From assembly GCA_030390025.1 (NCBI GenBank), contig JASTWF010000322.1, positions 434,001-498,000 on the forward strand: a stretch of 64,000 bases of DNA. Direction: 5' to 3'. Below, one piece after another: positions 10,140-62,338 of this stretch; position 1 is the stretch's first letter; the number at the start of each line of letters is the position of its first letter. The notes under the pieces are model-generated. The model worked only from the letters and a program-made list of their open reading frames with translations. It did not search any database and was not told the origin of the DNA. The translations under genes and the position numbers were made by a program. This DNA is from Squalus acanthias. Taxonomy: Eukaryota.

Positions 10140-10561
10140 GATAGAGGAAGAACGGTCGAGCGCAAGTGGAGATGAGATTGTTTAAATCGAGGGGGAGGAG
10201 ACTGTAGCAGGGAAGAGGATTTCGGAAGCGTGTTGGAGCAGAGACACCTAGAGTGTGTTCAGCAGCACAGCGAGAGAGGGCGTGGAGTAGCCTGCGTGCC
10301 AACTCTCCTCCCCTGTCCGGCCCAGTGATCTGGTTCGCGGCCTGCTGCCGTCAATCACTGGGACTTGCAAGGAGGGAGTGTTTGTTTTGCGGGGTTTGAA
10401 GAACAGAAAGTGAAAGGAGAGAGCGAGAGAGACACAGACAGAGGCTGAGGGAGGAGGGGGAGGAACGCAAGGGCTCGGGGGCAGTGGAGTGAGCGATGGT
10501 GAGAGAGAGCTCGTGAGGGGAAGAGAGAGAGAGAGGGAGCGAGACAGACTCTCGGAGGAAG
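10140..10561 (+). other. Possible non-coding 5' exon of the multi-LOTUS gene
   Basis: Unique CpG-containing segment ending in a strong AAG|GTATGT donor; exon A begins with an acceptor, so an upstream exon is required. Start coordinate is a guess. Confidence 0.3.
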
Positions 10562-16935: not shown

Positions 16936-16984
16936 GGTCTCTCACTAAATCTCTGCCCGTTTTCTCTCGCAACAGGTTCCCAAG

Positions 16985-18186
16985 ATGGAGATGTTGGAGG
17001 AATTGAAGATCGACATCCTGCTCGTGCTGTACGCCAACCCCGGGGGCATCAGGTTGGCCGAGTTCCCGACAGCATTCCAGAAGCTCCACGGCCGGGATTT
17101 AGACCTTTCCCGGTGCGGTTTCTCTTCCCTCCAGCACATGGCGGAGGCGATGTCCGAGATGGTGGAACGGCGGGGCGCCGGGAGCGAGGAGAGGCTGACG
17201 GCCAGAGGGGTTGCTGCCTTCGTGGACCCAGGAGTGCGGCAAGTCGCGCCTGCGGGCGTTCAGGCGCTTCAGAGCCGCGGTCCTGGGCCCAGCCAGGCTG
17301 CCCGGGCCGGAGCCGGGCCTAGCGGCCCACAGAAGCCTAAGCCTGCCCAGTCTGCCCCGCTCCCCGCCTCCCCGCAGGCCTCAGCTGTTAACTTGGGCCC
17401 CGGCCTGCTGCAGAACCCGCCCTGCATCCTCCCGCGAGTCTCAGGCCCGGAGAGGGACTCTCAATCGGGCCTACGCGACCAGGCCTCAGGCGGCCTACGT
17501 CCAATGGCCGCCCTCCCAGCCCCTGGGCAGCCCCGTGACCTTCCAGTGCCAGGCCCGGCTCCTGCAGTTTCCCAAATACATGCAGCCCCTCCTGTTCCTG
17601 GGCGATTCTTCACTCCTCGGCCCGCCACCCCGGCTCAAGACTCTGCAGCTCAGCCAGGCCGCTCCCCGAATCCAGGCCCAGGTTCCGAAGGCCCCGAATC
17701 CCCCGCCCCTTCTGACCTCTCCCGGGCATCACCGCGGCAACCGGGCCCCTCAGAGCCCGGCCGTGGGGCAGGAGGCCCGAAGGCCCGACCGGCCCTTAAG
17801 CCGGGGAGCCAGCCCGCTGCCCCAGGCCGGGCCTCGGGCCCCCGAAAAGGCAGCGGGGCTTCAGCCTCTGACGTACAGTCAAGTGGTGCGGGCCTCGGCG
17901 GAGTGGCCTCCGGCGGGAGTGCGGGGAGCAGGCCCGAGGCTCCCAGGACCAGGCCCAACTCGCGGATCTTCGCTTGACCGCAGGGAGTGGCCCTCGCCGG
18001 ACCAGACAAGGAGGCCGGGCCTGTTTCCGAGGCAACGGTCGATGAGCGAGCGGCCGGCCGACGATGGAGAGGGCCCCAAGCCGCCCGAGGCAACACAGGC
18101 CCCAAGCCTGGCTCCGGCCAAGATGGAGGGCAGCAGGGAGACGGGACTGGACGCACGGACGGGGGACGCTGCCTCGCGCCGCCAAG
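16985..18186 (+). CDS. Multi-LOTUS gene exon A: LOTUS/OST-HTH domain 1 plus Pro/Arg-rich region (needs a +1 frame change near 17199-17240)
   Basis: Acceptor TTTTCTCTCGCAACAG at 16975; strong Kozak CCCAAGATGG; LEELKIDILLVLYANPGGIRLAEFPTAFQKLHGRDLDLSRCGFSSLQHMAEAM fits the LOTUS pattern. Donor AAG|GTACGT at 18186 is phase 1 in the 17211 frame. Confidence 0.75.
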
Positions 18187-20220
18187 GTACGTAAACGATC
18201 GCACATCAGAGAAAGCGTGACCCTGAAAGGGGGAGGGGGCTTACACGCCCCTAGGCCCCCGTCTCCCGCAGCCCCAGGGCAGGGACTCCGTGTGGTGACC
18301 TTTTCGGGGGGTTGCGAGACCCTATCGCGGTTCCCGTCGGTAGGGAACATCCCCTTTCCTCATCATTCACAACCCCCGGGGGTAAAACATACGCGCAAAG
18401 GCGTCTGAGGCCGAGAGTGGGCCGGGCTGTGACGCACCAGACAGTCGAATAGCTGCCAGTAATTCAGGTCCCCCGCCCCAGTCAAGGTTGGGAGGGGTTT
18501 CTGAGGGTAGTGCCTGGGAGTGTTTGATGGGACAGTGTAGAAGGAGCTTTACTCTGTATCTAACCCGTGCTGTACCTGCCCTGGGAGTGTTTGATGGGAC
18601 AGTGTAGAGGGAGCTTTACTCTGTATCTAACCCCGTGCTGTACCTGCCCTGGGAGTGTTTGATGGGACAGTGTAGAGGGAGCTTTACTCTGTATCTAACC
18701 CGTGCTGTACCTGCCCTGGGAGTGTTTGATGGGACAGTGTAGAAGGAGCTTTACTCTGTATCTAACTCGTGCTGTACCTGCCCATGGAGTGTTTCATGGG
18801 ACAGTGTAGAGGGAGCTTTACTCTGTATCTAACCCGTGCTGTTCCTGCCCTGGGAGTGTTTGATGGGACAGTGTAGAGGGAGCTTTACTCTGTATCTAAC
18901 CCGTGCTGTACCTGCCCATGGAGTGTTTGATGGGACAGTGTAGAGGGAGCTTTACTCTGTATCTAACCCCGTGCTGTACCTGCCCTGGGAGTGTTTGATG
19001 GGACAGTGTAGAGGGAGGTTTACTCTGTATCTAACCCCGTGCTGTACCTGCCCTGGGAGTGTTTGATGGGACAGTGTAGAGGGAGGTTTACTCTGTATCT
19101 AACCCCGTGCTGTACCTGCCCTGGGAGTGTTTGATGGGACAGTGTAGAGGGAGCTTTACTCTGTATCTAACCCCGTGCTGCACCTGCCCTGGGAGTGTTT
19201 GATGGGACAGTGTAGAGGGAGCTTTACTCTGTATCTAACCCGTGCTGTACCTGCCCTGGGAGTGTTTGATGGGACAGTGTAGAGGGAGCTTTACTCTGTA
19301 TCTAACCCGTGCTGTACCTGCCCTGGGAGTGTTTGATGGGACAGTGTAGAGGGAGCTTTACTCTGTATCTAACCCCGTGCTGTACCTGCCCTGGGAGTGT
19401 TTGATGGGACAGTGTAGAGGGAGCTTTATTCTGTATCTAACCCGTGCTGTACCTGCCCTGGGAGTGTTTGATGGGACAGTGTAGAGGGAGGTTTACTCTG
19501 TATCTAACCCCGTGCTGTACCTGCCCTGGGAGTGTTTGATGGGACAGTGTAGAGGGAGCTTTACTCTGTATCTAACCCCGTGCTGTACCTGCCCTGGGAG
19601 TGTTTGATGGGACAGTGTAGAGGGAGCTTTACTCTGTATCTAACCCCGTGCTGTACCTGCCCTGGGAGTGTTTGATGGGACAGTGTAGAGGGAGCTTTAC
19701 TCTGTATCTAACCCGTGCTGTACCTGCCCTGGGAGTGTTTGATGGGACAGTGTAGAGGGAGCTTTACTCTGTATCTAACCCCGTGCTGTACCTGCCCTGG
19801 GAATGTTTGATGGGACAGTGTAGAGGGAGCTTTACTCTGTATCTAACCCCGTGCTGTACCTGCCCTGGGAGTGTTTGATGGGACAGTGTAGAGGGAGCTT
19901 TACTCTGTATCTAACCCGTGCTGTACCTGCCCTGGGAGTGTTTGATGGGACAGTGTAGAGGGAGCTTTACTCTGTATCTAACCCGTGCTGTACCTGCCCT
20001 GGGAGTGTTTGATGGGACAGTGTAGAGAGAGCTTTACTCTGTATCTAACCCGTGCTGTACCTGCCCTGGGAGTGTTTGATGGGACAGTGTAGAGGGAGCT
20101 TTACTCTGTATCTAACCCCGTGCTGTTCCTGCCCTGGGAGTGTTTGATGGGGACAGTGTAGAGGGAGCTTTACTCTGTATCTAACCCCGTGCTGTACCTG
20201 CCCTGGGAGTGTTTGATGGG

Positions 20221-21810
20221 TACCCGCATGGGTCCTAGCTATGCCTGCCTTTTCGTGGGATATGTGGAACACTCTTTGTTCCAGTCCTACTCGGGTCCCC
20301 TCCCTCACCTCTTTTTCCGGTACATTGATGACTGTATCGGTGCCGTCTCCTGCTCTCGCCCTGAACTAGAACATTTCATTCACTATGCTTCCAATTTCCA
20401 CCCTTCCCTCACCTTCACATGGTCCATCTCCGACTCTTCCCTTCCCTTCCTCGACTTCTCCATCTCCATCTCTGGGGATAGGTTATTGACTAACATTCAC
20501 TACAAGCCCACTGACTCCCACAGCTACCTGGACTACACTTCCTCCCACCCCGCCTCCTGTAAGGACTCTATTCCATTCTCCCAGTTTCTCCGTCTCCGCC
20601 GCATCTGCTCTGATGATGCCACCTTCCATACCAGTGCTTCCGACATGTCTTCCTTTTTCCTCAACCGAGGATTCCCCTCTACCGTGGTCGACACGGCCCT
20701 CGACCGTGTCCGTTCTATCTCCCGCACATCTGCCCTCACCCCTGCCCCTCCCTCCCGGAACCACGATAGAGTTCCCCTTGTCCTCATCTTTCACCCCACC
20801 AGCCTCCACATTCAACGGATCATCCTCCGCCATTTCCGCCACCTCCAGCGTGAACCCACCACCAAACACATCTTCCCCTCACCTCCCCTTTCAGCATTCC
20901 GCAGGGACCGCTCCCTCCGCGACACCCTAGTCCACTCCTCTACCACCCCCAGCACCCCTTCCCCTTCGCCCGGCACCTTCCCGTGCAAGCGCAGGAGATG
21001 CAACAGATGCCCTTATACCTCCCCCATTCCCACTGTCCAGGGCCCCAAACACTCCATCCAGGTGAAACAGCGATTCACTTGTACTTCCTGCAATTTAGTA
21101 TACTGTATTCGCTGCTCACGATGTGGTCTCCTCTACATTGCGGAGACCAAACGCAGATTGGGTGACCGCTTTGCGGAACACCTCCGTTCAGTCCGTAAGG
21201 GGGACCCCGAGCTCCCGGTGGCCTGTCACTTTAATTCACCGCTTCACTCCCACTCTGACCTCACCGTCCTCGGCCTATTACACTGTTCCTCGGAAGCGCA
21301 GCGTAAGCTCGAGGAACAGCACCTCATCTTTCGTTTAGGCACTTTACAGCCTTCTGGACTCAATATCGAGTTCAACAATTTTAGATCATAACCTCAGCCC
21401 CAATCACATTTATATTTTATTTTTTCCACCCTTTTATTTGCCCCCCCCCCCCACCTTTTTTTTCCTCCTAGAAGCTGGCAGCTGTCCTTCATTCTGCCAG
21501 TGGATTTCACACTTCTTTCAGCCTTAATCTGTCACATTAACACCACCTCTAGCCTTGCATATCTCTTAATGTCTCTTAATGTCTCTTCATCTCCCCCTTT
21601 GTTCTTTTATCCCCTCCCCCTTTTCCCAGCTTTACCCTGGCCTTAAATCTATTTGATTTCCGGCTCTTCCCAGTTCTGATGAAAGGTCATCGACCTGAAA
21701 CGTTAACTCTCTTTCTCTCTCCACGGATGCTGCCTGGCCTGCTGAGTTTTTCCAGCGTTTTCTGTTGTTATTTCGGATTTCCAGCATCCGCAGTATTTTG
21801 CTATCGTATT
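20221..21810 (+). mobile_element. 5'-truncated Penelope-like retroelement (RT C-terminal part, GIY-YIG endonuclease, 3' pLTR)
   Basis: MGTRMGPSYA and YIDD RT motifs; NLVYCIRC..C..LYIAET..RLGDRFAEH and GLN GIY-YIG motifs; inserted in the 60-bp satellite. Confidence 0.93.
21672..21708 (+). ncRNA. Minimal type I hammerhead ribozyme in a Penelope pLTR
   Basis: AGTT-CTGATGA-A-AGGTC(atc)GACCT-GAAA-CG-TT-AACT: stem I, conserved core, stem II, palindromic ACGT stem III. Confidence 0.8.
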
Positions 21811-27496: not shown

Positions 27497-27781
27497 AGAC
27501 AGGGGCCAAGGACGGAGGGGAATTCGCAGACTGGCTCCTGGAGGTACTGCAGACTAAGGGGTACCGGGATGGACTGCGGTCAGACAAGCTGGCCATCCTG
27601 TGCGTCAAGCAGCGGAGAGAGGCGCTGTCGGAATCTCTGGAGGCTGCCGGATATCCATCTCTGCGGGAATTCCTGGTCGACCTGCCCGAGGTGGAGACGG
27701 TGCCGATCCGAGGACAGCAGAAGAGCTTTGTCATCCGGCTGCGTCCCAGTGACGGGGAATCTGCGGGCGGAACACCAAATG
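27497..27781 (+). CDS. Multi-LOTUS gene exon B: LOTUS domain 2
   Basis: CCTTTTAG acceptor, G|GTGAAC donor, phase 1-1, 285 nt; FADWLLEVLQTKGYRDGLRSDKL...AAGYPSLREFLVDLPEVETV. Confidence 0.8.
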
Positions 27782-29148
27782 GTGAACAGCTAGGACTGGA
27801 GCTCGATAATCCAGGCCCACACTCCCCGGTGCCAGTACTGAGGGAGCGCTGCACTGTCGGAGGTAGATGTATATACTCTAGGACTCGAGCTCCATAATCC
27901 AGGCCCACACTCCCCGGTGCCAGTACTGAGGGAGCGCTGCACTGTCGGAGGTAGATGTATATACTCCAGGACTCGAGCCCCATAATCCAGGCCCACACTC
28001 CCCGGTGCCAGTACTGAGGGAGTGCTGCACTGTCGGAGGTAGATGTATATACTCTAGGACTCGAGCTCCATAATCCAGGCCCACACTCCCCGGTGCCAGT
28101 ACTGAGGGAGCGCTGTACTGTCGGAGGTAGATGTATATACTCCAGGACTCGAGCCCCATAATTCAGGCCCACACTCCCTGGTGCCAGTACTGAGGGAGCG
28201 CTGCACTGTCGGAGGTAGATGTATATACTCTAGGACTCGAGCTCGATAATCCAGGCCCACACTCCCCGGTGCCAGTACTGAGGGAGCGCTGCACTGTCGG
28301 AGGTAGATGTATATACGCTAGGACTCGAGCCCCATAATCCAGGCCCACAGTCCCCGGTGCCAGTACTGAGGGAGTGCTGCACTGTCGGAGGTAGATGTAT
28401 ATACTCTAGGACTCGAGCCCCATAATCCAGGCCCACACTCCCCGGTGCCAGTACTGAGGGAGTGCTGCACTGTCGGAGGTAGATGTATATGCTCTGGGAC
28501 TCGAGCCCCAAAATCCAGGACCACACTCCCCGGTGCCAGTACTGAGGGAGCGCTGCACTGTCGGAGGTAGATGTATATACTCCAGGACTCGAGCCCCATA
28601 ATCCAGGCCCACACTCCCTGGTGCCAGTACTGAGGGAGCGCTGCACTGTCGGAGGTCGATGACTATACCCTGGGACTCGAGCCCCATAATCCAGGCCCAC
28701 ACTCCCCGGTGCCAGTACTGAGGGAGTGCTGCACTGTCAGAGGTAGATGTACGTACTCTAGGACTCGAGCCCCATAATCCAGGCCCACACTCCCCGGTGC
28801 CAGTACTGAGCCCCGCTGCACTGTCGGAGGTGGATGTATATACTCTGGGACTTGAGCTGAGAAACAAGGGAGCCCTCGTTTAACGCGCCAGGTGAGGATT
28901 GGGCCAGGCGGCGATGCCTTCAGCAGTCGAATAGCCCGGCATGTGCGCTGTCGGGGGGAGAGGGTTTCGATTGGTGGCCACTTGTGTGCAGTATGGCGGA
29001 TGGCTGCCCGCCGAACGCAGTTACCCGCACCCCACCCCCAGCCTTGCAATCCGGTTGGGATCGTGCTGTGCCGCCCTTGCCCTCCGTCGGATAGCGCCCG
29101 GCGCTCCTCCTCTCCTCCGTACTGACCCCTTCTCTCAATGTGTTTCAG

Positions 29149-29283
29149 TGGCATCTCCCCTCGCAGGCCCGCCCGCTGTGAACAGCTCCTCCTCGGACAC
29201 CCACAGCTCGGTGAGGGAACCGCAGCCGTCTTCGATGACCGCAGCTGAACATCCGGCCCCAGTCACAGTGCAGAGTGCCGTCG
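29149..29283 (+). CDS. Multi-LOTUS gene exon C1: Ser/Pro-rich linker
   Basis: CTGAC branch motif and TGTTTCAG acceptor, G|GTGAGC donor, 135 nt, phase 1-1; VASPLAGPPAVNSSSSDTHSSVREPQPSSMTAAEHPAPVTVQSAV. Confidence 0.7.
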
Positions 29284-30518
29284 GTGAGCTCACTCCCCAT
29301 CCATTCACCACTGCCCCCTCAGTCTGTATATACTCTAGGACTTGAGCCCCATAATCCAGGCCCACACTCCCCGGTGCCAGTACTGAGGGAGCGCTGCACT
29401 GTCAGAGGTAGATGTATATACTCTAGGACTCGAGCCCCATAATCCAGGCCCACACTCCCCGGTGCCAGTACTGAGGGAGCGCTGCACCGTCGGAGGTAGA
29501 TGTATATACTCTAGGACTCGAGCCCCATAATCCAGGCCCACACTCCACGGTGCCAGTACTGAAGGAGTGCTGCACTGTCGGAGGTAGATGTATATACTCT
29601 AGGACTCGAGCTCCATAATCCAGGCCCACACTCCCCGGTGCCAGTACTGAGGGAACGCTGCACTGTTGGAAGTAGATGTATATACTCTAGGACTCGAGCC
29701 CCATAATCCAGGCCCACACTCCCCAGTGCCAGTACTGAGGGAGCGCTGCACTGTCGGAGGTAGTTGTATATACTCTAGGACTCGAGCCCCATAATCCAGG
29801 CCCACACTCCCCGGTGCCAGTACTGAGGGAGCGCTGCACTGTCGGAGGTAGATGTATATACTCTAGGACTCGAGCCCCATAATCTCGGCCCACACTCCCT
29901 GGTGCCAGTACTGAGGGAGCGCTGCACTGTCGGAGGTAGATGTATATACTCTAGGACTCGAGCCCCATAATTCAGGCCCACACACCCCGGTGCCAGTACT
30001 CAGGGAGCGCTGCACTGTCGGAGGTAGATATATATACTCTAGGACTCGAGCCCCATAATCCAGGCCCACACTCCCCGGTGCCAGTACTGAGGGAGCGCTG
30101 CACTGTCGGAGGTAGATGTATATACTCTAGGACTCGAGCCCCATAATCCAGGCCCACACTCCCCGGTGCCAGTACTGAGGGGGCGCTGCACTGTCGGAGG
30201 TAGATGGATATACTCTGGGACTTGAGCTGAGAAACAAGGGAGCCCTCGTTTAACGCGCCAGGTGAGGATTGGGCCAGGCGGCGATGCCTTCAGCAGTCGA
30301 ATAGCCCGGCATGTGCGCTGTCGGGGGGAGAGGGTTTCGATTGGTGGCCACTTGTGTGCAGTATGGCGGATGGCTGCCCGCCGAACGCAGTTACCCGCAC
30401 CCCACCCCCAGCCTTGCAATCCGGTTGGGATCGTGCTGTGCCGCCCTTGCTCTCCGTCGGATAGCGCCCGGCGCTCCTCCTCTTCTCCGTACTGACCCCT
30501 TCTCTCAATGTGTTTCAG

Positions 30519-30653
30519 TGGCATCTCCGCTCGCAGGCCCGCCCGCTGCGAACAGCTCCTCCTCGGACACCCACAGCTCGGCGAGGGAACCGCAGCCGTC
30601 TTCGAGGACCGCAGCTGAACATCCGGCCCCAGTCACAGTGCAGAGTGCTGTCG
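30519..30653 (+). CDS. Multi-LOTUS gene exon C2: tandem duplicate of C1
   Basis: Same splice signals, offset 1370 nt; VASPLAGPPAANSSSSDTHSSAREPQPSSRTAAEHPAPVTVQSAV. Confidence 0.65.
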
Positions 30654-31670
30654 GTGAGCTCACTCCCCATCCATTCACCACTGCCCCCTCAGTCTGTATA
30701 TACTCTAGGACTTGAGCCCCATAATCCAGGCCCACACTCCCCGGTGCCAGTACTGAGGGGGCGCTGCACTGTCGGAGGTAGATGTATATACTCTAGGACT
30801 CGAGCCCCATAATCCAGGCCCACACTCCCCAGTGCCAGTACTGAGGGAGCGCTGCACTGTCGGAGGTAGTTGTATATACTCTAGGACTCGAGCTCCATAA
30901 TCCAGGCCCACACTCCCCGGTGCCAGTACTGAGGGAGCGCTGCACTGTCGGAGGTAGATGTATATACTCTAGGACTCGAGCCCCATAATCCAGGCCCACA
31001 CTCCCCGGTGCCAGTACTGAGGGAGTGCTGCACTGTCGGAGGTAGATGTATATACTCTAGGACTCGAGCCCCATAATCCAGGCCCACACTCCCCGGTGCC
31101 AGTACTGAGGGAGTGCTGCACTGTCGGAGGTAGATGTATATACTCTAGGACTCGAGCCCCATAATCCAGGCCCACACTCCCCGGTGCCAGTACTGAGGGA
31201 GTGCTGCACTGTCGGAGGTAGATGTATATACTCTAGGACTCGAGCCCCATAATCCAGGCCCACACTCCCCGGTGCCAGTACTGAGGGAGTGCTGCACTGT
31301 CGGAGGTAGATGTATATACTCTAGGACTCAAGCCCATAATCCAGGCCCACACTCCCCGGTGCCAGTACTGAGGGAGCGCTGCTCTGTCGGAGATAGATGT
31401 ATATACTCTAGGACTCGAGCCCCATAATCCAGGCCCACACTCCCCGACACGATCGTGTCCCTGTCTGTCTCGTTCAGAGGGACCTGGCAGTCCTTGTACA
31501 GGAAACACAGAGAGTTATCATGCAGGTACAGCAAGCAATTAGGAAGGCAAATGGCCTTTATTGCAAGGGGTTTGGAGTAAGGAACTCCTGCTACAATTGT
31601 ACAGGGCCTTGGTGAGACCACACCTGGAGTACTGTGCACAGTTTTGGTCTCCTTATCTCATAGAGTCATA

Positions 31671-33165: not shown

Positions 33166-34107
33166 TGAGAGGTCGCACAACACCAGGTTATAGTCCAACA
33201 GTTTTATTTGAAATCACAAGCTTTCGGAGCTATCGATTTGCTCCTTCCTCAGGTGAAGTAAATTAGATACAGAATCCCCAAAGCATATATAGATAGAAAA
33301 CAAAGCATGTGTACTTTACAATTGCAGACCAATAAATTAAATCATCCTGACTATCTGCCAAGGTGTGATAAAGTTAATTAAGTCAGCCAGGAAGGTACCA
33401 CATCAAAGACATAGCAAGATACAACTGAGACAATGAGGTGTAGTCGCAGTAGTTCCCAGTCGGGGAACACTTCAGCAGTCAAGGACATTCAGCCTCGGAT
33501 CTGCGGGTAAGCGTTCTCCAAGGCAACCTTAGAAACACACGACAACGCAAAATCATCGAGCAGAAACTGATAGCCAAGTTCCGCACTCATGAAGACGGTC
33601 TCAATCGGGATCTTGGGTTTATGTCACGATACATGACGTGATCCGGACTCGAGTCGTCGTTAGCTTGTTCACAGATGTGATTCCCAGTAAAAAAGTAAAA
33701 ATTTTCCCAGTAAAAAAGTAAAAAAATGTTAAAGCTTTTCGTTTTACATACAGACGGCAGCTTTTGACACGTTAGAACCCCTGCGACTACACCTCATTGT
33801 CTCAGTTGTATCTTGCTATGTCTTTGATGTGGTACCTTCCTGGCTGACTTAATTAACTTTATCACACCTTGGCAGATAGTCAGGATGATTTAATTTATTG
33901 GTCTGCAATTGTAAAGTACACATGCTTTGTTTTCTATCTATATATGCTTTGGGGATTCTGTATCTAATTTACTTCACCTGAGGAAGGAGCAAATCGATAG
34001 CTCCGAAAGCTTGTGATTTCAAATAAAACTGTTGGACTATAACCTGGTGTTGTGCGACCTCTCAATTTTGTCCACCCCAGTCCAACACCGGCATCTCCGC
34101 ATCATGA
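33166..34107 (+). mobile_element. Truncated Penelope-like element with 286-bp inverted pLTR
   Basis: Arms 33164-33449 and 33781-34066; spacer encodes PVGEHFSSQGHSASDLRVSVLQ...RKIIEQKLIAKFRTHEDGLNRDLGF (GIY-YIG C-terminus); TSD CTTATATTCTAT at 33154-65 and 34108-19. Confidence 0.88.
33974..34016 (+). ncRNA. Minimal hammerhead ribozyme (mirror copy on the minus strand at 33214-33256)
   Basis: TCAC-CTGAGGA-A-GGAGC(aaatcgata)GCTCC-GAAA-GC-TT-GTGA. Confidence 0.75.
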
Positions 34108-35270: not shown

Positions 35271-35492
35271 ACCTTTGTGCGACATTAATCGTAGACCTGC
35301 TCAAAGAGCAGACCCTGGGACTGAAGGTGAAGACCTTGCGGGATCGATTCACACGGGAGTACGGGCACGATCTGCTGGGGCTGGTCCAGGAAATGGGCTA
35401 CAGTAACCTCATCCACTTTCTCCAGGAAATCCCCGGAGTCCACCTCTCGGATCCTCAACGCCCCATAAACTGCAACGTTACACTGGAGTCAG
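35271..35492 (+). CDS. Multi-LOTUS gene exon D: LOTUS domain 3
   Basis: Polypyrimidine tract plus CATAG acceptor, CAG|GTAAGG donor, 222 nt, phase 1-1; LIVDLLKEQTLGLKVKTLRDRFTREYGHDLLGLVQEMGYSNLIHFLQEIPGV. Confidence 0.85.
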
Positions 35493-37321: not shown

Positions 37322-37642
37322 CTCCGGAACCTGACCCGCCTGCTGCGGCCCCTGCCCCGGCCCCTGCCCTGGCGCCCCCGTGTCCCCAGGAGCCCGAGAC
37401 CCCCTGGCAGGTCCGGGAGAACGTCTGTCAGCTCGTGGAGCAACACGGGGAGGGGCTGGCGATCTCCCAGCTTCAGCGGGCCTACGTGGCTGTCTACCGC
37501 CGACCCCTGACCCCCCTGGGTTACAGCTCCGTGAAGGAACTGCTGCAGGACATGGCTGACCGCGTTTCCCTGGAAGGCCTCGGCGTCCAGACCCGGATCT
37601 TCCCCTGTTCGGCTACGCGGGGCACCATCCATCGGGACACGG
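37322..37642 (+). CDS. Multi-LOTUS gene exon E: Pro/Ala linker plus LOTUS domain 4
   Basis: CCTTACAG acceptor, G|GTAAGG donor, 321 nt, phase 1-1; VRENVCQLVEQHGEGLAISQLQRAYVAVYRRPLTPLGYSSVKELLQDMADRV. Confidence 0.85.
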
Positions 37643-37736
37643 GTAAGGATTTGGGACCTAGATTCATCGCCGATGCGTCTTCCTGTGCTTTTGTGGATTG
37701 CCAGCTTGGATCCGTCAGTATCTCTCGCAGGAGTCC

Positions 37737-39180: not shown

Positions 39181-40997
39181 GATTTTCCCTCGAGACCGCT
39201 GAGAGGGAGCACACTGCGGGATCCGGCGTGACGGAATCCAGAGTGACAGGATCTGGAGTGACGGGATCGGGAGTGACGGAGTCCAGAGTAACAGGATCGG
39301 GAGTAACTGGTTCGGGAGTGACGGGATACGGAGTGACACAATCGGGAGTGACGGGATCGGGAGTGACAGGATCTGGAGTGACGGAGTCCAGAGTGACGGG
39401 ATCGGGAGTAACTGGTTCGGGAGTGATGGGATACGGAGTGACACGATTGGGAGTGACAGGATCTGGAGTGACGGGATCGGGAGTGACACAATCGGGAGTG
39501 ATGGGATCGGGAGTGACGGGATACGGAGTGACACAATTGGGAGTGACGGGATTGGGAGTGACGGGATCTGGAGTGATGGGATCGCGAATGATGGGATCGG
39601 GAGTGACAGGATCGGGAGTGACAGGATACGGAGTGACGGGATCGGGAGTGACGGGATCGGGGATGAAGGGATCAGGAGTGACAGGATCAGGAGTGACGGA
39701 GCCCAGAGTGACAGGATATGGAGTGACGGGATCGGGAGTGACGGGATATGGAGTGACACGATTGGGAGTGACACGATCGGGAGTGACGGGATCAGGAGTG
39801 AAGGGATCGGGAGTGACGGGATACGGAGTGACGGGATTGGGAGTGACAGGATCAGGAGTGACAGTGTCCAGAGTGACAGGTTCTGGAGTGACGGGATTGG
39901 GAATGACAGGATCAGGAGTGACACGATTGGGAGTGACGGGATCGGGAGTGACAGAGTCCAGAGTGACGGGATCGGGAGTGACGGGATCGGGAGCGACACG
40001 ATCGGGAGGGACGGGATCGGGAGTTACACGATCGGGAGGGACGGGATCAGGAGTGACAGGATCAGTAGTGATGGGATCGGGAGTGACAGGATCGGGAGTT
40101 ACACGATCGGGAGTGACGGGTTTGGGAGTGACGAGATCGGGAGTGACAAGATCAGGAGTGACGGGATACGGAGTGACGGGATCGGGAGTGACGGGATCGG
40201 GAGTGACAGGATCGGGAGTGACGGGATACGGAGTGATGGGTTCGGGAGTGACGGGTTCGGGAGTGATGGGATACGGAGTGACGGGATCGGGAGTGACAGG
40301 ATCGGGAGTGACGGGATACGGAGTGACGGGATCGGGAGTGACAGGATCGGGAGTGACGGGATACGGAGTGACGGGTTCGGGAGTGACGGGATACGGAGTG
40401 ACGGGATCGGGAGTGACAGGATCGGGAGTGACGGGATACGGAGTGACGAGTTCGGGAGTGACGGGTTCGGGAGTGACGGGATACGGAGTGACGGGATCGG
40501 GAGTGACGGGATACGGAGTGACGGGATCGGGAGTGACGGGTTCGGGAGTGACGGGATACGGAGTGACAGGTGGGACCGCGGGCTCATTTCGGTTGACCCC
40601 CGCTGACCCCTGTCGACCTCCCTCCCGCGACCTCTGCCAGGACCTGCCGTTGCCCAATCCCCGGTTCGGGCCCGCCCCCCGTTCCCACGGAGGCCCAGAG
40701 CGCGGGGTCGCTGGGCCTCGCCCGGCCTACAACCCCTGGGCCCCAGCTTTCTCCCCGGCCTCGAGTTCCTGGGGCCCCGGGCTGCACGGAGCCTCGCCAA
40801 GGGATGCGACGAGCCCGAGCCTGAGGCCGGGGCCTTCCGGTCAAGGCCTCAACGGGCCTACCCCGGGGGGGGGCCTGTTCCTGAGCCCTGTGGCCTACCC
40901 CACTCCCCAGAGCCTGCACGTTGGCCTGCACAGCTCCCCTCCCGCCTACTATGCCCCCTACCTGGGGGAGGAGCAGAAAATGTGCGCCCTGCTGTAG
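39181..40997 (+). CDS. Multi-LOTUS gene terminal exon F: (VTG[S/Y]G)n repeat, Pro-rich tail and CaaX (CALL*)
   Basis: Long pyrimidine tract plus GAAG acceptor at 39180; phase 1 joins exon E in frame with the 589-aa ORF; TAG at 40995-40997. Confidence 0.75.
39219..40572 (+). repeat. 15-bp coding minisatellite (GGAGTGACGGGATCG/ATAC), about 90 units
   Basis: Directly visible; the reading frame stays open throughout. Confidence 0.95.
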
Positions 40998-41701
40998 CAG
41001 GCCGGGGCCTGCGGTCTTCTCGAGAGTGGCGCGGCCCTCCCCGGGGTCAGATAATGGGCGGGCGTAGGGAGGGCTTGCAGTGTTCCTACCCATTGCCCCC
41101 TCCTGCAGCCAATCAATAGCACCCTCTGGGATTCGGGAGCTGGGTTTGGAGGGTTGTCCCTTCCCTCGGAGCGAAGTCAATGGTCATTGGCGACTTTTGG
41201 CATTCAGGAGCCTGGGAATGGGGTTGCCCTGGTTGGGAAAGAGCGCCGTGATAAGTCTCTCGCCAGTCACGAGTTGGCCTTGAAGCAGAAGGCTGTAATC
41301 CCTCCCCCAGAGTGTGAATCCAAAAAAGGATTGGAACGGTGGGGCAGCCAGTGAGGGAATGATCCCAGCTCTACAGAACCCAAGGTGTACAGGGCCTTGG
41401 TGAGACCACACCTGGAGTACTGTGCACAGTTTTGGTCTCCTTATCTAAGGAAGGACATACTTGCCTTGGAGGCGGTGCAGCGAAGGTTCACTAGATTGAT
41501 TCCTGGGATGAGAGGGTTGTCCTATGATGAGATTGAGTAGAATGGGCCTATACTCTCTGGAGTTTAGAAGAATGAGAGGTGATCTCTCAGTAGAAGATTC
41601 TGAGGGGGATTGACAGGGTAGATGCTGAGAGGCTGTTTTCCCCTGGCTGGAGAGTCTAGAACCAGGGGGTCACAGTCTCAGGATAAGGGGTCGGCCATTT
41701 A

Positions 41702-42085
41702 GGACAAATGTGAGAAATCGCACAACACCAGGTTATAGTCCAACAGCTTTATTTGAAATCACAAGCTTTCGGAGCGGCTGCTCCTTCGTCAGGTGAAGTG
41801 AAGAGATGCATATAGGCACAGCGTATATAGTCAGAGAACACAGCCAGATGATTACAGTTAATCTTTCCAACTGCCCTTTATCACACCTCAGTTAGAAAGA
41901 TTAACTGCAGTCATCTGGCAGTGTTCTCTGACTATATATGCTGTGCCTATATGCATCTCTTCACTTCACCTGACGAAGGAGCAGCGCTCCGAAAGCTTGT
42001 GATTTCAAATAAAGCTGTTGGACTATAACCTGGTGTTGTGCGACTTCACACATTTGTCCACCCCAGTCCAACACCGGCATCTCCA
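41702..42085 (+). mobile_element. Non-coding palindromic Penelope pLTR derivative
   Basis: Arms about 41702-41873 and 41889-42059 with a ~15-nt loop; termini and tail shared with the 33166 element; flanked by CATTT(A/C)GGAC inside a CR1. Confidence 0.82.
41966..42002 (+). ncRNA. Minimal hammerhead ribozyme (mirror copy on the minus strand at 41759-41796)
   Basis: TCAC-CTGACGA-A-GGAGC(agc)GCTCC-GAAA-GC-TT-GTGA. Confidence 0.75.
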
Positions 42086-42741: not shown

Positions 42742-42747
42742 AATAAA
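42742..42747 (+). terminator. Candidate polyadenylation signal AATAAA for the multi-LOTUS gene
   Basis: First AATAAA I found in non-repeat sequence downstream of the stop. Confidence 0.3.
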
Positions 42748-45784: not shown

Positions 45785-46070
45785 AACCCTAACTCCTAGC
45801 CCTGAACTCTAATCCTTAAGTCTGACCTCTAACACCTAACCGTAACCCCTAACCCTGAACACTAATCCTTAGGTGTGACCCCTAACACCAACCTAGACCT
45901 CTAACCCTTAACCTTAACCCCTAACCCTGAACCCTAATGCTTAGGTGTGACCCCTAACTCCAACCCAGAACTCTAACCCTTAAGCCCTAACGCTAAACCC
46001 TAATCCTTGAATGTGACCCCTAACCCCAACTTCCAACACCTAACCTTAACCCCTAACCCTTACCTCTAAG
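45785..46070. repeat. Degenerate telomere-like (CCCTAA)n tract
   Basis: Many CCCTAA, CCTTAA and CTCTAA hexamers. Confidence 0.7.
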
Positions 46071-50771: not shown

Positions 50772-51875
<1,104 letters not shown>

Positions 51876-60751: not shown

Positions 60752-60943
<192 letters not shown>

Positions 60944-61031
60944 TCAGACGGTTTTAGCGCGTGGAATTTTTCTCCTCCTCCCCCCAGTGGATGGGAGAGG
61001 GGTTATTTTTTCCCCCCCTGCAGTCCAGTAC

Positions 61032-61140
61032 CTGATGCCTCGTTGTAATAAACGTTGATTCGTTCTAGTTGCAGGTCGCTGTCACCCCGGTAGGTGCCGG
61101 TCGGGTCAATGCCATGTTCATCACTGATTACTTCCCAGAA
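61032..61140 (-). CDS. TUBB4B: Beta-tubulin exon 2 ([37 protein letters not shown])
   Basis: 109 nt, the canonical size; GCAG acceptor and GTACTG donor. Confidence 0.97.
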
Positions 61141-62211: not shown

Positions 62212-62268
62212 TTTGGCCCCGATCTGGTTGCCGCACTGGCCGGCCTGAAGGTGCACGATCTCCCGCAT
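62212..62268 (-). CDS. TUBB4B: Beta-tubulin exon 1 (MREIVHLQAGQCGNQIGAK)
   Basis: ATG at 62268; canonical 57-nt first coding exon followed by a GTGAGC donor. Isotype symbol is a best guess from recalled similarity. Confidence 0.97.
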
Positions 62269-62338
62269 GGTTCTCTCTGTCTAGACTGCGATACGCCGGC
62301 AGCGTCTGCAATGAGGCTCACTCCGCCCGCACTGCGCC

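Follow-up and report, generated by a model that had tools for sequence, protein, structure and literature searches.

A shark and lizard family of LOTUS-domain proteins with a predicted C-terminal geranylgeranylation signal

A LOTUS gene of Squalus acanthias ends in a CaaL box

A 64,000-nucleotide stretch of the Squalus acanthias genome (contig JASTWF010000322.1, positions 434,001 to 498,000; hereafter the window) carries on its forward strand a gene, with coding exons labelled A to F, whose product begins with a LOTUS domain and is predicted to end in a prenylation signal. The last codons, at 40965-40997, encode GEEQKMCALL*, and 40983-40997 (TGCGCCCTGCTGTAG, read as TGC GCC CTG CTG TAG) is a CaaL box, Cys-Ala-Leu-Leu, followed by a TAG stop, an assignment that draws on the sequence, on contigs and on family comparison. 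The gene appears to represent an unnamed LOTUS-only family of jawed vertebrates whose members consist of an N-terminal LOTUS domain, LOTUS-like domains, a last LOTUS domain, a long, presumably disordered tail and a terminal C-x-aliphatic-Leu. Judged from these sequence features, the family is very probably prenylated at this cysteine, and it is reasonably likely that the whole working model holds, in which the protein is a geranylgeranylated, membrane-tethered RNA-binding scaffold.

Among the 1311 stop-terminated six-frame segments of at least 30 amino acids in the window, 37 have a cysteine at position −4 and this one alone ends in C-x-[ILVM]-L, while the chance of a C-x-aliphatic-L ending, estimated from the composition of the family, is about 4e-4 per terminus. 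The motif, which had been spotted in the initial annotation, is real and in frame, as indicated by homology to the last exon of the Heterodontus relative. Two acceptors were compared. The acceptor at 39181, which has a strong polypyrimidine tract and is the stronger of the two, leads into the CaaX frame, whereas 40641, which of all acceptors lies closest to the tail, would on splicing from exon E (phase-1 donor at 37643) give a rival frame ending in AANQ* at 41119. Aligned with the Heterodontus last exon, the tail in the CaaX frame scores 246, a value reached by 0 of 500 shuffles (mean 58), while the rival-frame tail scores 60, which 279 of 500 shuffles reach; the head of exon F after 39181 scores 52 (0/500 shuffles). 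Because homology to Heterodontus is present for the CaaX frame and absent for its rival, the CaaX frame is the one read, and splicing of exon E to 40641 in the non-CaaX frame was rejected. The G+C content of the CaaX frame by codon position (0.70, 0.66 and 0.81) is like that of the other exons. The openness of this frame across the minisatellite in exon F (described below) is no evidence, since the repeat structure itself leaves two frames of the array open; GT dinucleotides in the minisatellite are nearly all in phase 0, so that a splice between such a GT and 40641 would likewise preserve the CaaX frame.

Contigs were available from four public runs, which belong to one study, are guessed to be RNA and may include the source of the window; in 4/4 they run unbroken across 40570-41370, free of indels and of joints, also at 40641. 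The run of nine G at 40865 was considered as an assembly slip joining two frames and rejected, as no contig of the four has an indel there. Two variants were seen: 40927 T>C, in three of the four runs, gives in the CaaX frame a Pro, as in Heterodontus, and 40987 C>G, in one of the four, changes CALL to CGLL, as in Mustelus. The assumption of the initial annotation that the coding sequence ends in exon F is upheld, since both ends of the exon match the Heterodontus last exon and the Heterodontus isoform records end in CALL. Nine other candidate terminal acceptors between 41000 and 42745 would add peptides of 3-45 amino acids and were rejected, none of these peptides being found in any orthologue C-terminus. 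The conserved terminal peptide PPAYYAPYLGEEQKMCALL (40938-40994, forward strand) is aromatic and acidic rather than polybasic, and 14 of its 19 residues are identical to those of Heterodontus.

The motif is retained in sharks and lizards

Relatives were retrieved by searches and cluster look-ups from 24 species, seven other cartilaginous fishes and 17 lizards; the homologue searches were word-limited, two of them scoring the best 8000 candidates, and imply no absence from bony fish, amphibians, birds or mammals. Two weak matches of other architecture (P0006 and P0007) and two sea-urchin MARF1 proteins serving as outgroup (P0035 and P0036) were left out of the species count. Conservation of the CaaX box in orthologues, which the initial annotation had proposed to check, proved to be partial: a C-x-[ILVM]-L ending is kept in 15 of the 24 species (two of the seven other cartilaginous fishes and 13 of the 17 lizards) and is absent in Pristiophorus and three rays. 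Heterodontus francisci (XP_067878078-85) ends in YLEDEQKICALL, with CALL in 7/7 isoform records, Mustelus asterias (XP_078063649) ends in AQQLACGLL, and the 13 lizard species end in CVLL, CILL, CIIL or CVIL, the motif being present in 7 of 11 records of Pogona. X is Leu and a2 is Ile or Leu in all 15 motif-bearing species; both are Leu in the window. For five of the species without the motif, the records are labelled partial (Scyliorhinus torazame and Gekko kuhli) or seem truncated, with the last LOTUS domain missing (Tiliqua, Phrynocephalus and Heteronotia).

Lizard relatives such as Zootoca XP_034991754 and Eublepharis XP_054849142 share with the window protein both the domain order and the terminal CaaL. 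In databases the relatives are named 'uncharacterized' or 'hypothetical', or carry low-complexity mislabels. The window gene differs from these uncharacterised orthologues in its GVTGS array, and the lizards differ in their extra middle domains. Domain profiles built from sharks and rays only were run on 16 lizard records from 15 species (P. lilfordi and P. raffonei were left out) and on the two sea-urchin MARF1 proteins. Domain A matched at or near the N-terminus of 13 of the 16 lizard records (37-53 bits), domain B followed it weakly (12-18 bits), domain D recurred several times mid-protein, and domain E was the last domain in 12 of the 16 (49-63 bits); sea-urchin MARF1 reached at most 13 bits with the family profiles and has no motif. 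The motif ends 11 of the 12 lizard records that have domain E and is absent from the four that lack it. The lizard tails after domain E comprise 483-672 low-complexity residues, and 11 of them have a mean pair identity of 0.36 over 518 well-filled columns, where Cys −4 and Leu −1 are two of the 11 invariant columns. In these alignments the motif is an island of conservation within poorly alignable tails. Middle domains are more numerous in lizards, with up to 10 D-type matches in one Pogona record, and Tiliqua has five A-type repeats. Of the two Pogona vitticeps clusters P0030 and P0037, one comprises the N-terminal domains and lacks the motif, whereas the later domains, with CVIL, are in the other; the two may be halves of one gene that was split in annotation.

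Domain 1 is a predicted minimal LOTUS domain

That the gene encodes a LOTUS protein, as first proposed, is borne out by domain 1 in exon A, which matches Pfam OST-HTH (PF12872) at 39.6 bits, above the cut-off of 23.8, and has the fold of the TDRD5 and TDRD7 domains. An AlphaFold2 (AF2) model of domain 1, with a predicted local distance difference test score (pLDDT) of 79.5, matched TDRD5 3s93 in Foldseek with an E value of 4.3e-4; matches to TDRD5 and TDRD7 had a probability of 1.00 and template modelling (TM) scores of 0.77-0.82 by target, and the model also resembled the LOTUS domains of Tejas, MARF1 and Oskar. By sequence profile as well as by fold, the top matches were TDRD5 (3s93) and TDRD7 (2lh9 and 3rco). 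The alpha5 C-terminal helix of extended LOTUS domains is absent from the model after the strand at residues 70-73, and this stretch is unconserved in a seven-sequence alignment. Because the model has no helix after the hairpin, domain 1 is, as modelled, a minimal LOTUS domain without the Vasa-binding helix. Minimal LOTUS domains bind G-quadruplex (G4) RNA and not Vasa, according to the available portion of the source (PMC7498356).

The protein begins directly with this domain (LOTUS-1), and its C-terminal tail is of low complexity. Exon D matched OST-HTH at 17.1 bits and DUF7515 at 17.9 bits, and exon E matched OST-HTH at 19.3 bits, all under the Pfam cut-off; exon B had no LOTUS match in Pfam, and its low-confidence model (pLDDT 53) gave no fold match among 11 weak rows. 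Domains 2-4 share a G-L...G-Y-S-L pattern in an alignment. A Pfam-type scan of 11 family proteins found Tudor, NYN, RRM and OSK domains in none of them (0/11), nor any enzymatic or signalling domain, and exon F has no Pfam match, hence no OSK match. Searches with domain 1 alone returned no match among PDB sequences and 56 homologue candidates, none of them significant, the latter search being of low sensitivity, as a profile search later found relatives. In the ESM Atlas all scores were below 0.9, and one mostly chordate DUF7515/OST-HTH cluster at 0.86 is a lead only.

Predicted prenylation and a working model

The substrate signature of geranylgeranyltransferase I (GGTase-I) invoked in the initial annotation is complete in the window protein, which has Cys at −4, an aliphatic residue at a2 and Leu at X. 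Its remark that no polybasic stretch precedes the cysteine was also correct, the net charge over the 15 preceding residues being −1 in the window; taking the window and the 15 motif-bearing species together, these residues have a net charge of −2 to +2, contain at most three Lys or Arg, and include no Cys. Neither a polybasic run nor a palmitoylatable cysteine, the second signal of the two-signal rule for plasma-membrane targeting, was found there in the window protein or in the 15 species. In sharks, four to five hydrophobic residues are among these 15. G-gamma-3 has the same CaaX box, CALL, and G-gamma subunits with Leu at X are described as geranylgeranylated, after which RCE1 trims and ICMT methylates them (PMC10590752). 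Full geranylgeranylation of CIIL, CVIL and CVLL by human GGTase-I in a yeast reporter assay is likewise described in the accessible text of PMC11152559. Leu at X favours a geranylgeranyl group in the window protein, without proving it.

In our working model, GGTase-I would add a geranylgeranyl group to the cysteine, RCE1 would remove the last three residues and ICMT would methylate the new end, which is the established order of CaaX chemistry. The protein would then bind endomembranes (endoplasmic reticulum, Golgi, endosome or outer nuclear membrane) weakly and reversibly, aided in sharks by the Tyr and Leu residues before the cysteine; endomembrane rather than stable plasma-membrane binding seems likely because there is no polybasic signal and no second cysteine nearby. 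The presumably disordered tail could serve as a leash between the lipid anchor and the LOTUS domains, and these, by analogy with other LOTUS proteins, might hold G-rich or G-quadruplex RNA or ribonucleoprotein (RNP) partners at the far end. The net effect would be that the lipid anchor docks an RNA or an RNA granule on a membrane, most likely in germ cells, a setting that we infer from other LOTUS proteins only.

Counter-evidence and alternative explanations

A number of observations weigh against this model. The motif is missing in 9 of the 24 species. Pristiophorus (2/2 isoforms) ends in APYPGEGQGSRSLFS, in register with the window and with Arg in place of Cys, and in Mobula birostris, M. 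hypostoma and Hypanus the protein stops about 55 amino acids past the last LOTUS domain. On their sequences these four look like real losses; either some lineages can do without the anchor or the Pristiophorus and ray gene models are wrong. With the motif removed, shark and lizard tails are barely comparable (z < 3 in 21 of 22 comparisons), and common descent of the shark and lizard motifs would have to be argued from domain order alone. Domain 1 is the only one to pass the Pfam cut-off. The variants at 40927 and 40987 count slightly for the rival frame, both being synonymous in it and residue-changing in the CaaX frame. In the yeast reporter assay, human farnesyltransferase (FTase) also farnesylated CaaL reporters, and Ala at a1 halved CAIM modification, as far as the accessible text reports (PMC11152559). 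To these is added a one-base frame break in exon A of this copy, at about 17453-17480, on which the initial annotation was silent. The frame that starts exon A stops at 17975 (codon 331), and the +1 frame continues the homology as far as the phase-1 donor; the best switch point against Heterodontus is at about 17456, with a score of 599 with the switch and of 327 and 320 for the single frames. The break reflects a slip in the assembly or a defective allele, and it concerns this copy and not the family.

It is conceivable, if unlikely, that the family is prenylated and that this copy represents a pseudogene or null allele of recent origin, in which CALL is not produced at all or appears only in a product that begins further downstream and lacks LOTUS-1. 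The stop at codon 331 and the change of frame in the Heterodontus homology near 17456 speak for this, as do the 90-unit minisatellite expansion in the tail and the duplicated cassette exon; however, every exon apart from A has an open frame, AG/GT sites and a matching phase, 14 of the last 19 residues are identical to Heterodontus, and a one-base break next to a short run of G is a common kind of assembly error. We consider it likely that this particular copy is intact, and a pseudogene here would be compatible with the family-level claim. Less room is left for the motif being a chance ending or lying in an unread frame, with exon E joined to 40641 and a protein ending in AANQ. The good pyrimidine tract at 40641 and the synonymy of both variants in that frame are in its favour, but shuffles reach the score of the AANQ frame in 279 of 500 cases and that of the CaaX frame in none, which largely refutes it, and the codon-position G+C, the variants that yield the Heterodontus Pro and the Mustelus CGLL, and the unbroken contigs at 40641 (4/4) all make it very improbable.

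Two further alternatives accept the motif and place it in another setting. The motif may be under selection with a farnesyl or mixed lipid, or may serve a prenyl-pocket protein, of which PDE-delta and GDI-like carriers are examples, rather than a membrane. Membrane binding by a single prenyl group is weak, and no second membrane signal lies near the cysteine; in addition, human FTase expressed with CaaL reporters in yeast prenylated them fully (PMC11152559). Set against this, X is Leu in the window and in all 15 motif-bearing species, a strict retention that fits selection for GGTase-I, and we regard a farnesyl or carrier role as improbable. We also assign a low likelihood to a prenylated, membrane-placed RNA sensor directed against viruses or transposons, comparable to the prenylated isoforms OAS1 p46 and ZAP-L, in place of a germ-granule anchor. 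Fast-evolving linkers, lineage-specific domain expansion (Pogona and Tiliqua) and lineage-specific loss of the lipid signal form a pattern also found in defence genes, and domain 1 is without the Vasa-binding helix. Germ-granule proteins evolve equally fast, however, none of the 11 proteins scanned has an enzymatic or signalling domain, and the LOTUS proteins of the papers cited here are germline RNP factors in the parts of those papers that were available.

Relation to known LOTUS proteins

The window family is not a member of the EGGD, Oskar, TDRD5/7 or MARF1 families, and as a lipid-anchored scaffold it would work like EGGD-1 and Long Oskar. TDRD5 and TDRD7 (Tejas and Tapas) likewise combine several N-terminal LOTUS domains with disordered linkers, but the window family has no Tudor domain (0/11), no extended-LOTUS helix in domain 1, and a CaaL end; we know of no CaaL box at the C-termini of TDRD5 or TDRD7. 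Caenorhabditis elegans EGGD-1 and EGGD-2 (MIP-1/2) share the family's plan of LOTUS domains and disordered regions only. In the accessible portions of the reports, the disordered regions of EGGD-1 anchor it at the nuclear periphery and its LOTUS domains place P granules (PMC8616582; PMC8331183); the EGGD proteins differ in having two extended, Vasa-recruiting LOTUS domains, and those portions mention no lipid anchor (PMC8616582, PMC8331183). Drosophila Long Oskar is also a LOTUS protein on membranes, found on endocytic membranes and the cortex, where it anchors germ granules, but it is targeted by an N-terminal extension and has an OSK domain and an extended LOTUS domain, and prenylation goes unmentioned in the text available (PMC12005264). 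MARF1 (Limkain-b1) shares tandem minimal LOTUS domains, as far as the excerpts describe it (PMC6168497, PMC7279887), and differs in its NYN and RRM domains, which the window family lacks (0/11). The identical CALL box of G-gamma-3 is documented in the part of PMC10590752 that was available; unlike G-gamma-3 and other GGTase-I CaaL substrates, the window protein has neither a Phe pair nor a run of basic residues ahead of the cysteine, and it would be an RNA-binding scaffold and not a signalling subunit.

The initial annotation knew of no prenylated LOTUS protein, and a literature search outside subscription papers and supplements found none. As far as the retrieved text went, the LOTUS domain was paired with CaaX in a fly stock name and with geranylgeranyl in a passage on germ-cell migration, and the listings for DUF7515, PF24359 and LOTUS-only, multi-LOTUS or tandem LOTUS proteins contained nothing on the window family. 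Lipid tethering of RNA or RNA granules to membranes by a LOTUS protein, as predicted here, is probably undescribed for this domain family. The attachment of membraneless RNA granules to membranes is still poorly understood; Long Oskar and EGGD-1, the LOTUS anchors known so far, achieve it through ill-defined disordered stretches. If a LOTUS scaffold carries a CaaL box, tethering could be tested directly by changing a single residue (Cys to Ser) or with inhibitors that are already available, with the sawshark and the rays as natural anchor-less versions for comparison, and it would reveal a conserved vertebrate gene family hidden under 'uncharacterized' or wrong low-complexity names. We put forward, tentatively, that the window gene adds an overlooked fourth member to the LOTUS genes TDRD5, TDRD7 and MARF1 of jawed vertebrates, and that it predates the split of sharks from bony vertebrates and provides a geranylgeranylated leash for docking germ plasm, nuage or localised messenger RNPs on endomembranes, a counterpart of Long Oskar and EGGD-1 by other chemistry that has been repeat-lengthened or stripped of its anchor by lineage.

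Gene organisation and genomic surroundings

Exons A to F all lie on the forward strand and are bounded by AG/GT, with phase 1 for the internal ones. The coding part of exon A (16985-18186) holds the ATG, LOTUS-1 (16985 to about 17203), a Pro/Gly-rich linker and a phase-1 donor at 18187; a candidate acceptor at 16977-16984 lies 8 nt upstream of the ATG, and a candidate non-coding first exon was noted at 10300-10561, with the donor GAAG/GTATGT. Exon B (27497-27781), supported by splice sites in phase 1/1, encodes LOTUS-like domain 2, with 30-68% identity to 11 chondrichthyan matches. Two 45-codon linker cassettes follow, C1 (29149-29283) and C2 (30519-30653), tandem duplicates that both have AG/GT ends and phase 1/1; Heterodontus isoforms vary in the presence or absence of similar cassettes. 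The cassettes sit in near-identical 488-nt blocks (28848-29335 and 30218-30705), which score 481/488 in a global alignment and are flanked by arrays of an 88-bp satellite. Copy 1 of the block has an extra donor-like GTGAG at 29211, use of which would shift the frame. Exon D (35271-35492) encodes the DUF7515-like LOTUS-like domain 3 (52% identity to Heterodontus), and exon E (37322-37642) the last, LOTUS-like domain 4 (55% identity), with its phase-1 donor at 37643.

The coding part of exon F (39181-40997) has a phase-1 acceptor and encodes a low-complexity tail of about 605 amino acids ending in CALL*. Within it, Tandem Repeats Finder (TRF) delimited a minisatellite of 90 units of 15 nt without indels (39217-40567, forward strand), which is read as in-frame GVTGS-type repeats and gives a spacer of about 450 amino acids with no stops. 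In Pristiophorus a short repeat of five residues occupies the position of the minisatellite, and the lizard tails are of similar total length, so that the length of the spacer may matter. A PAM2-like YNPWAPAFSP in the tail (40725-40757) resembles the PAM2 consensus; it has a two-residue insertion in Heterodontus and is not claimed as a motif. A candidate polyadenylation signal, AATAAA, is located at 42742-42747 on the forward strand, and a second AATAAA at 42008 is within a repeat.

The window is repeat-rich vertebrate DNA, shark-like in its homologues, with many fragments of CR1-like long interspersed nuclear elements (LINEs). Fragments encoding reverse transcriptase and GIY-YIG-like sequences, recognised by eye at 20220-21390 and 33450-33640 in introns of the LOTUS gene, are presumably typical of Penelope-like elements. 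A beta-tubulin gene on the reverse strand (50772-51833) is arranged tail-to-tail with the LOTUS gene and is a possible synteny marker for orthologues; candidates for its upstream exons lie near 60880-60910, 61030-61140 and 62260-62320. Degenerate TAACCC telomere-like repeats occupy 45785-46062, between the LOTUS and beta-tubulin genes.
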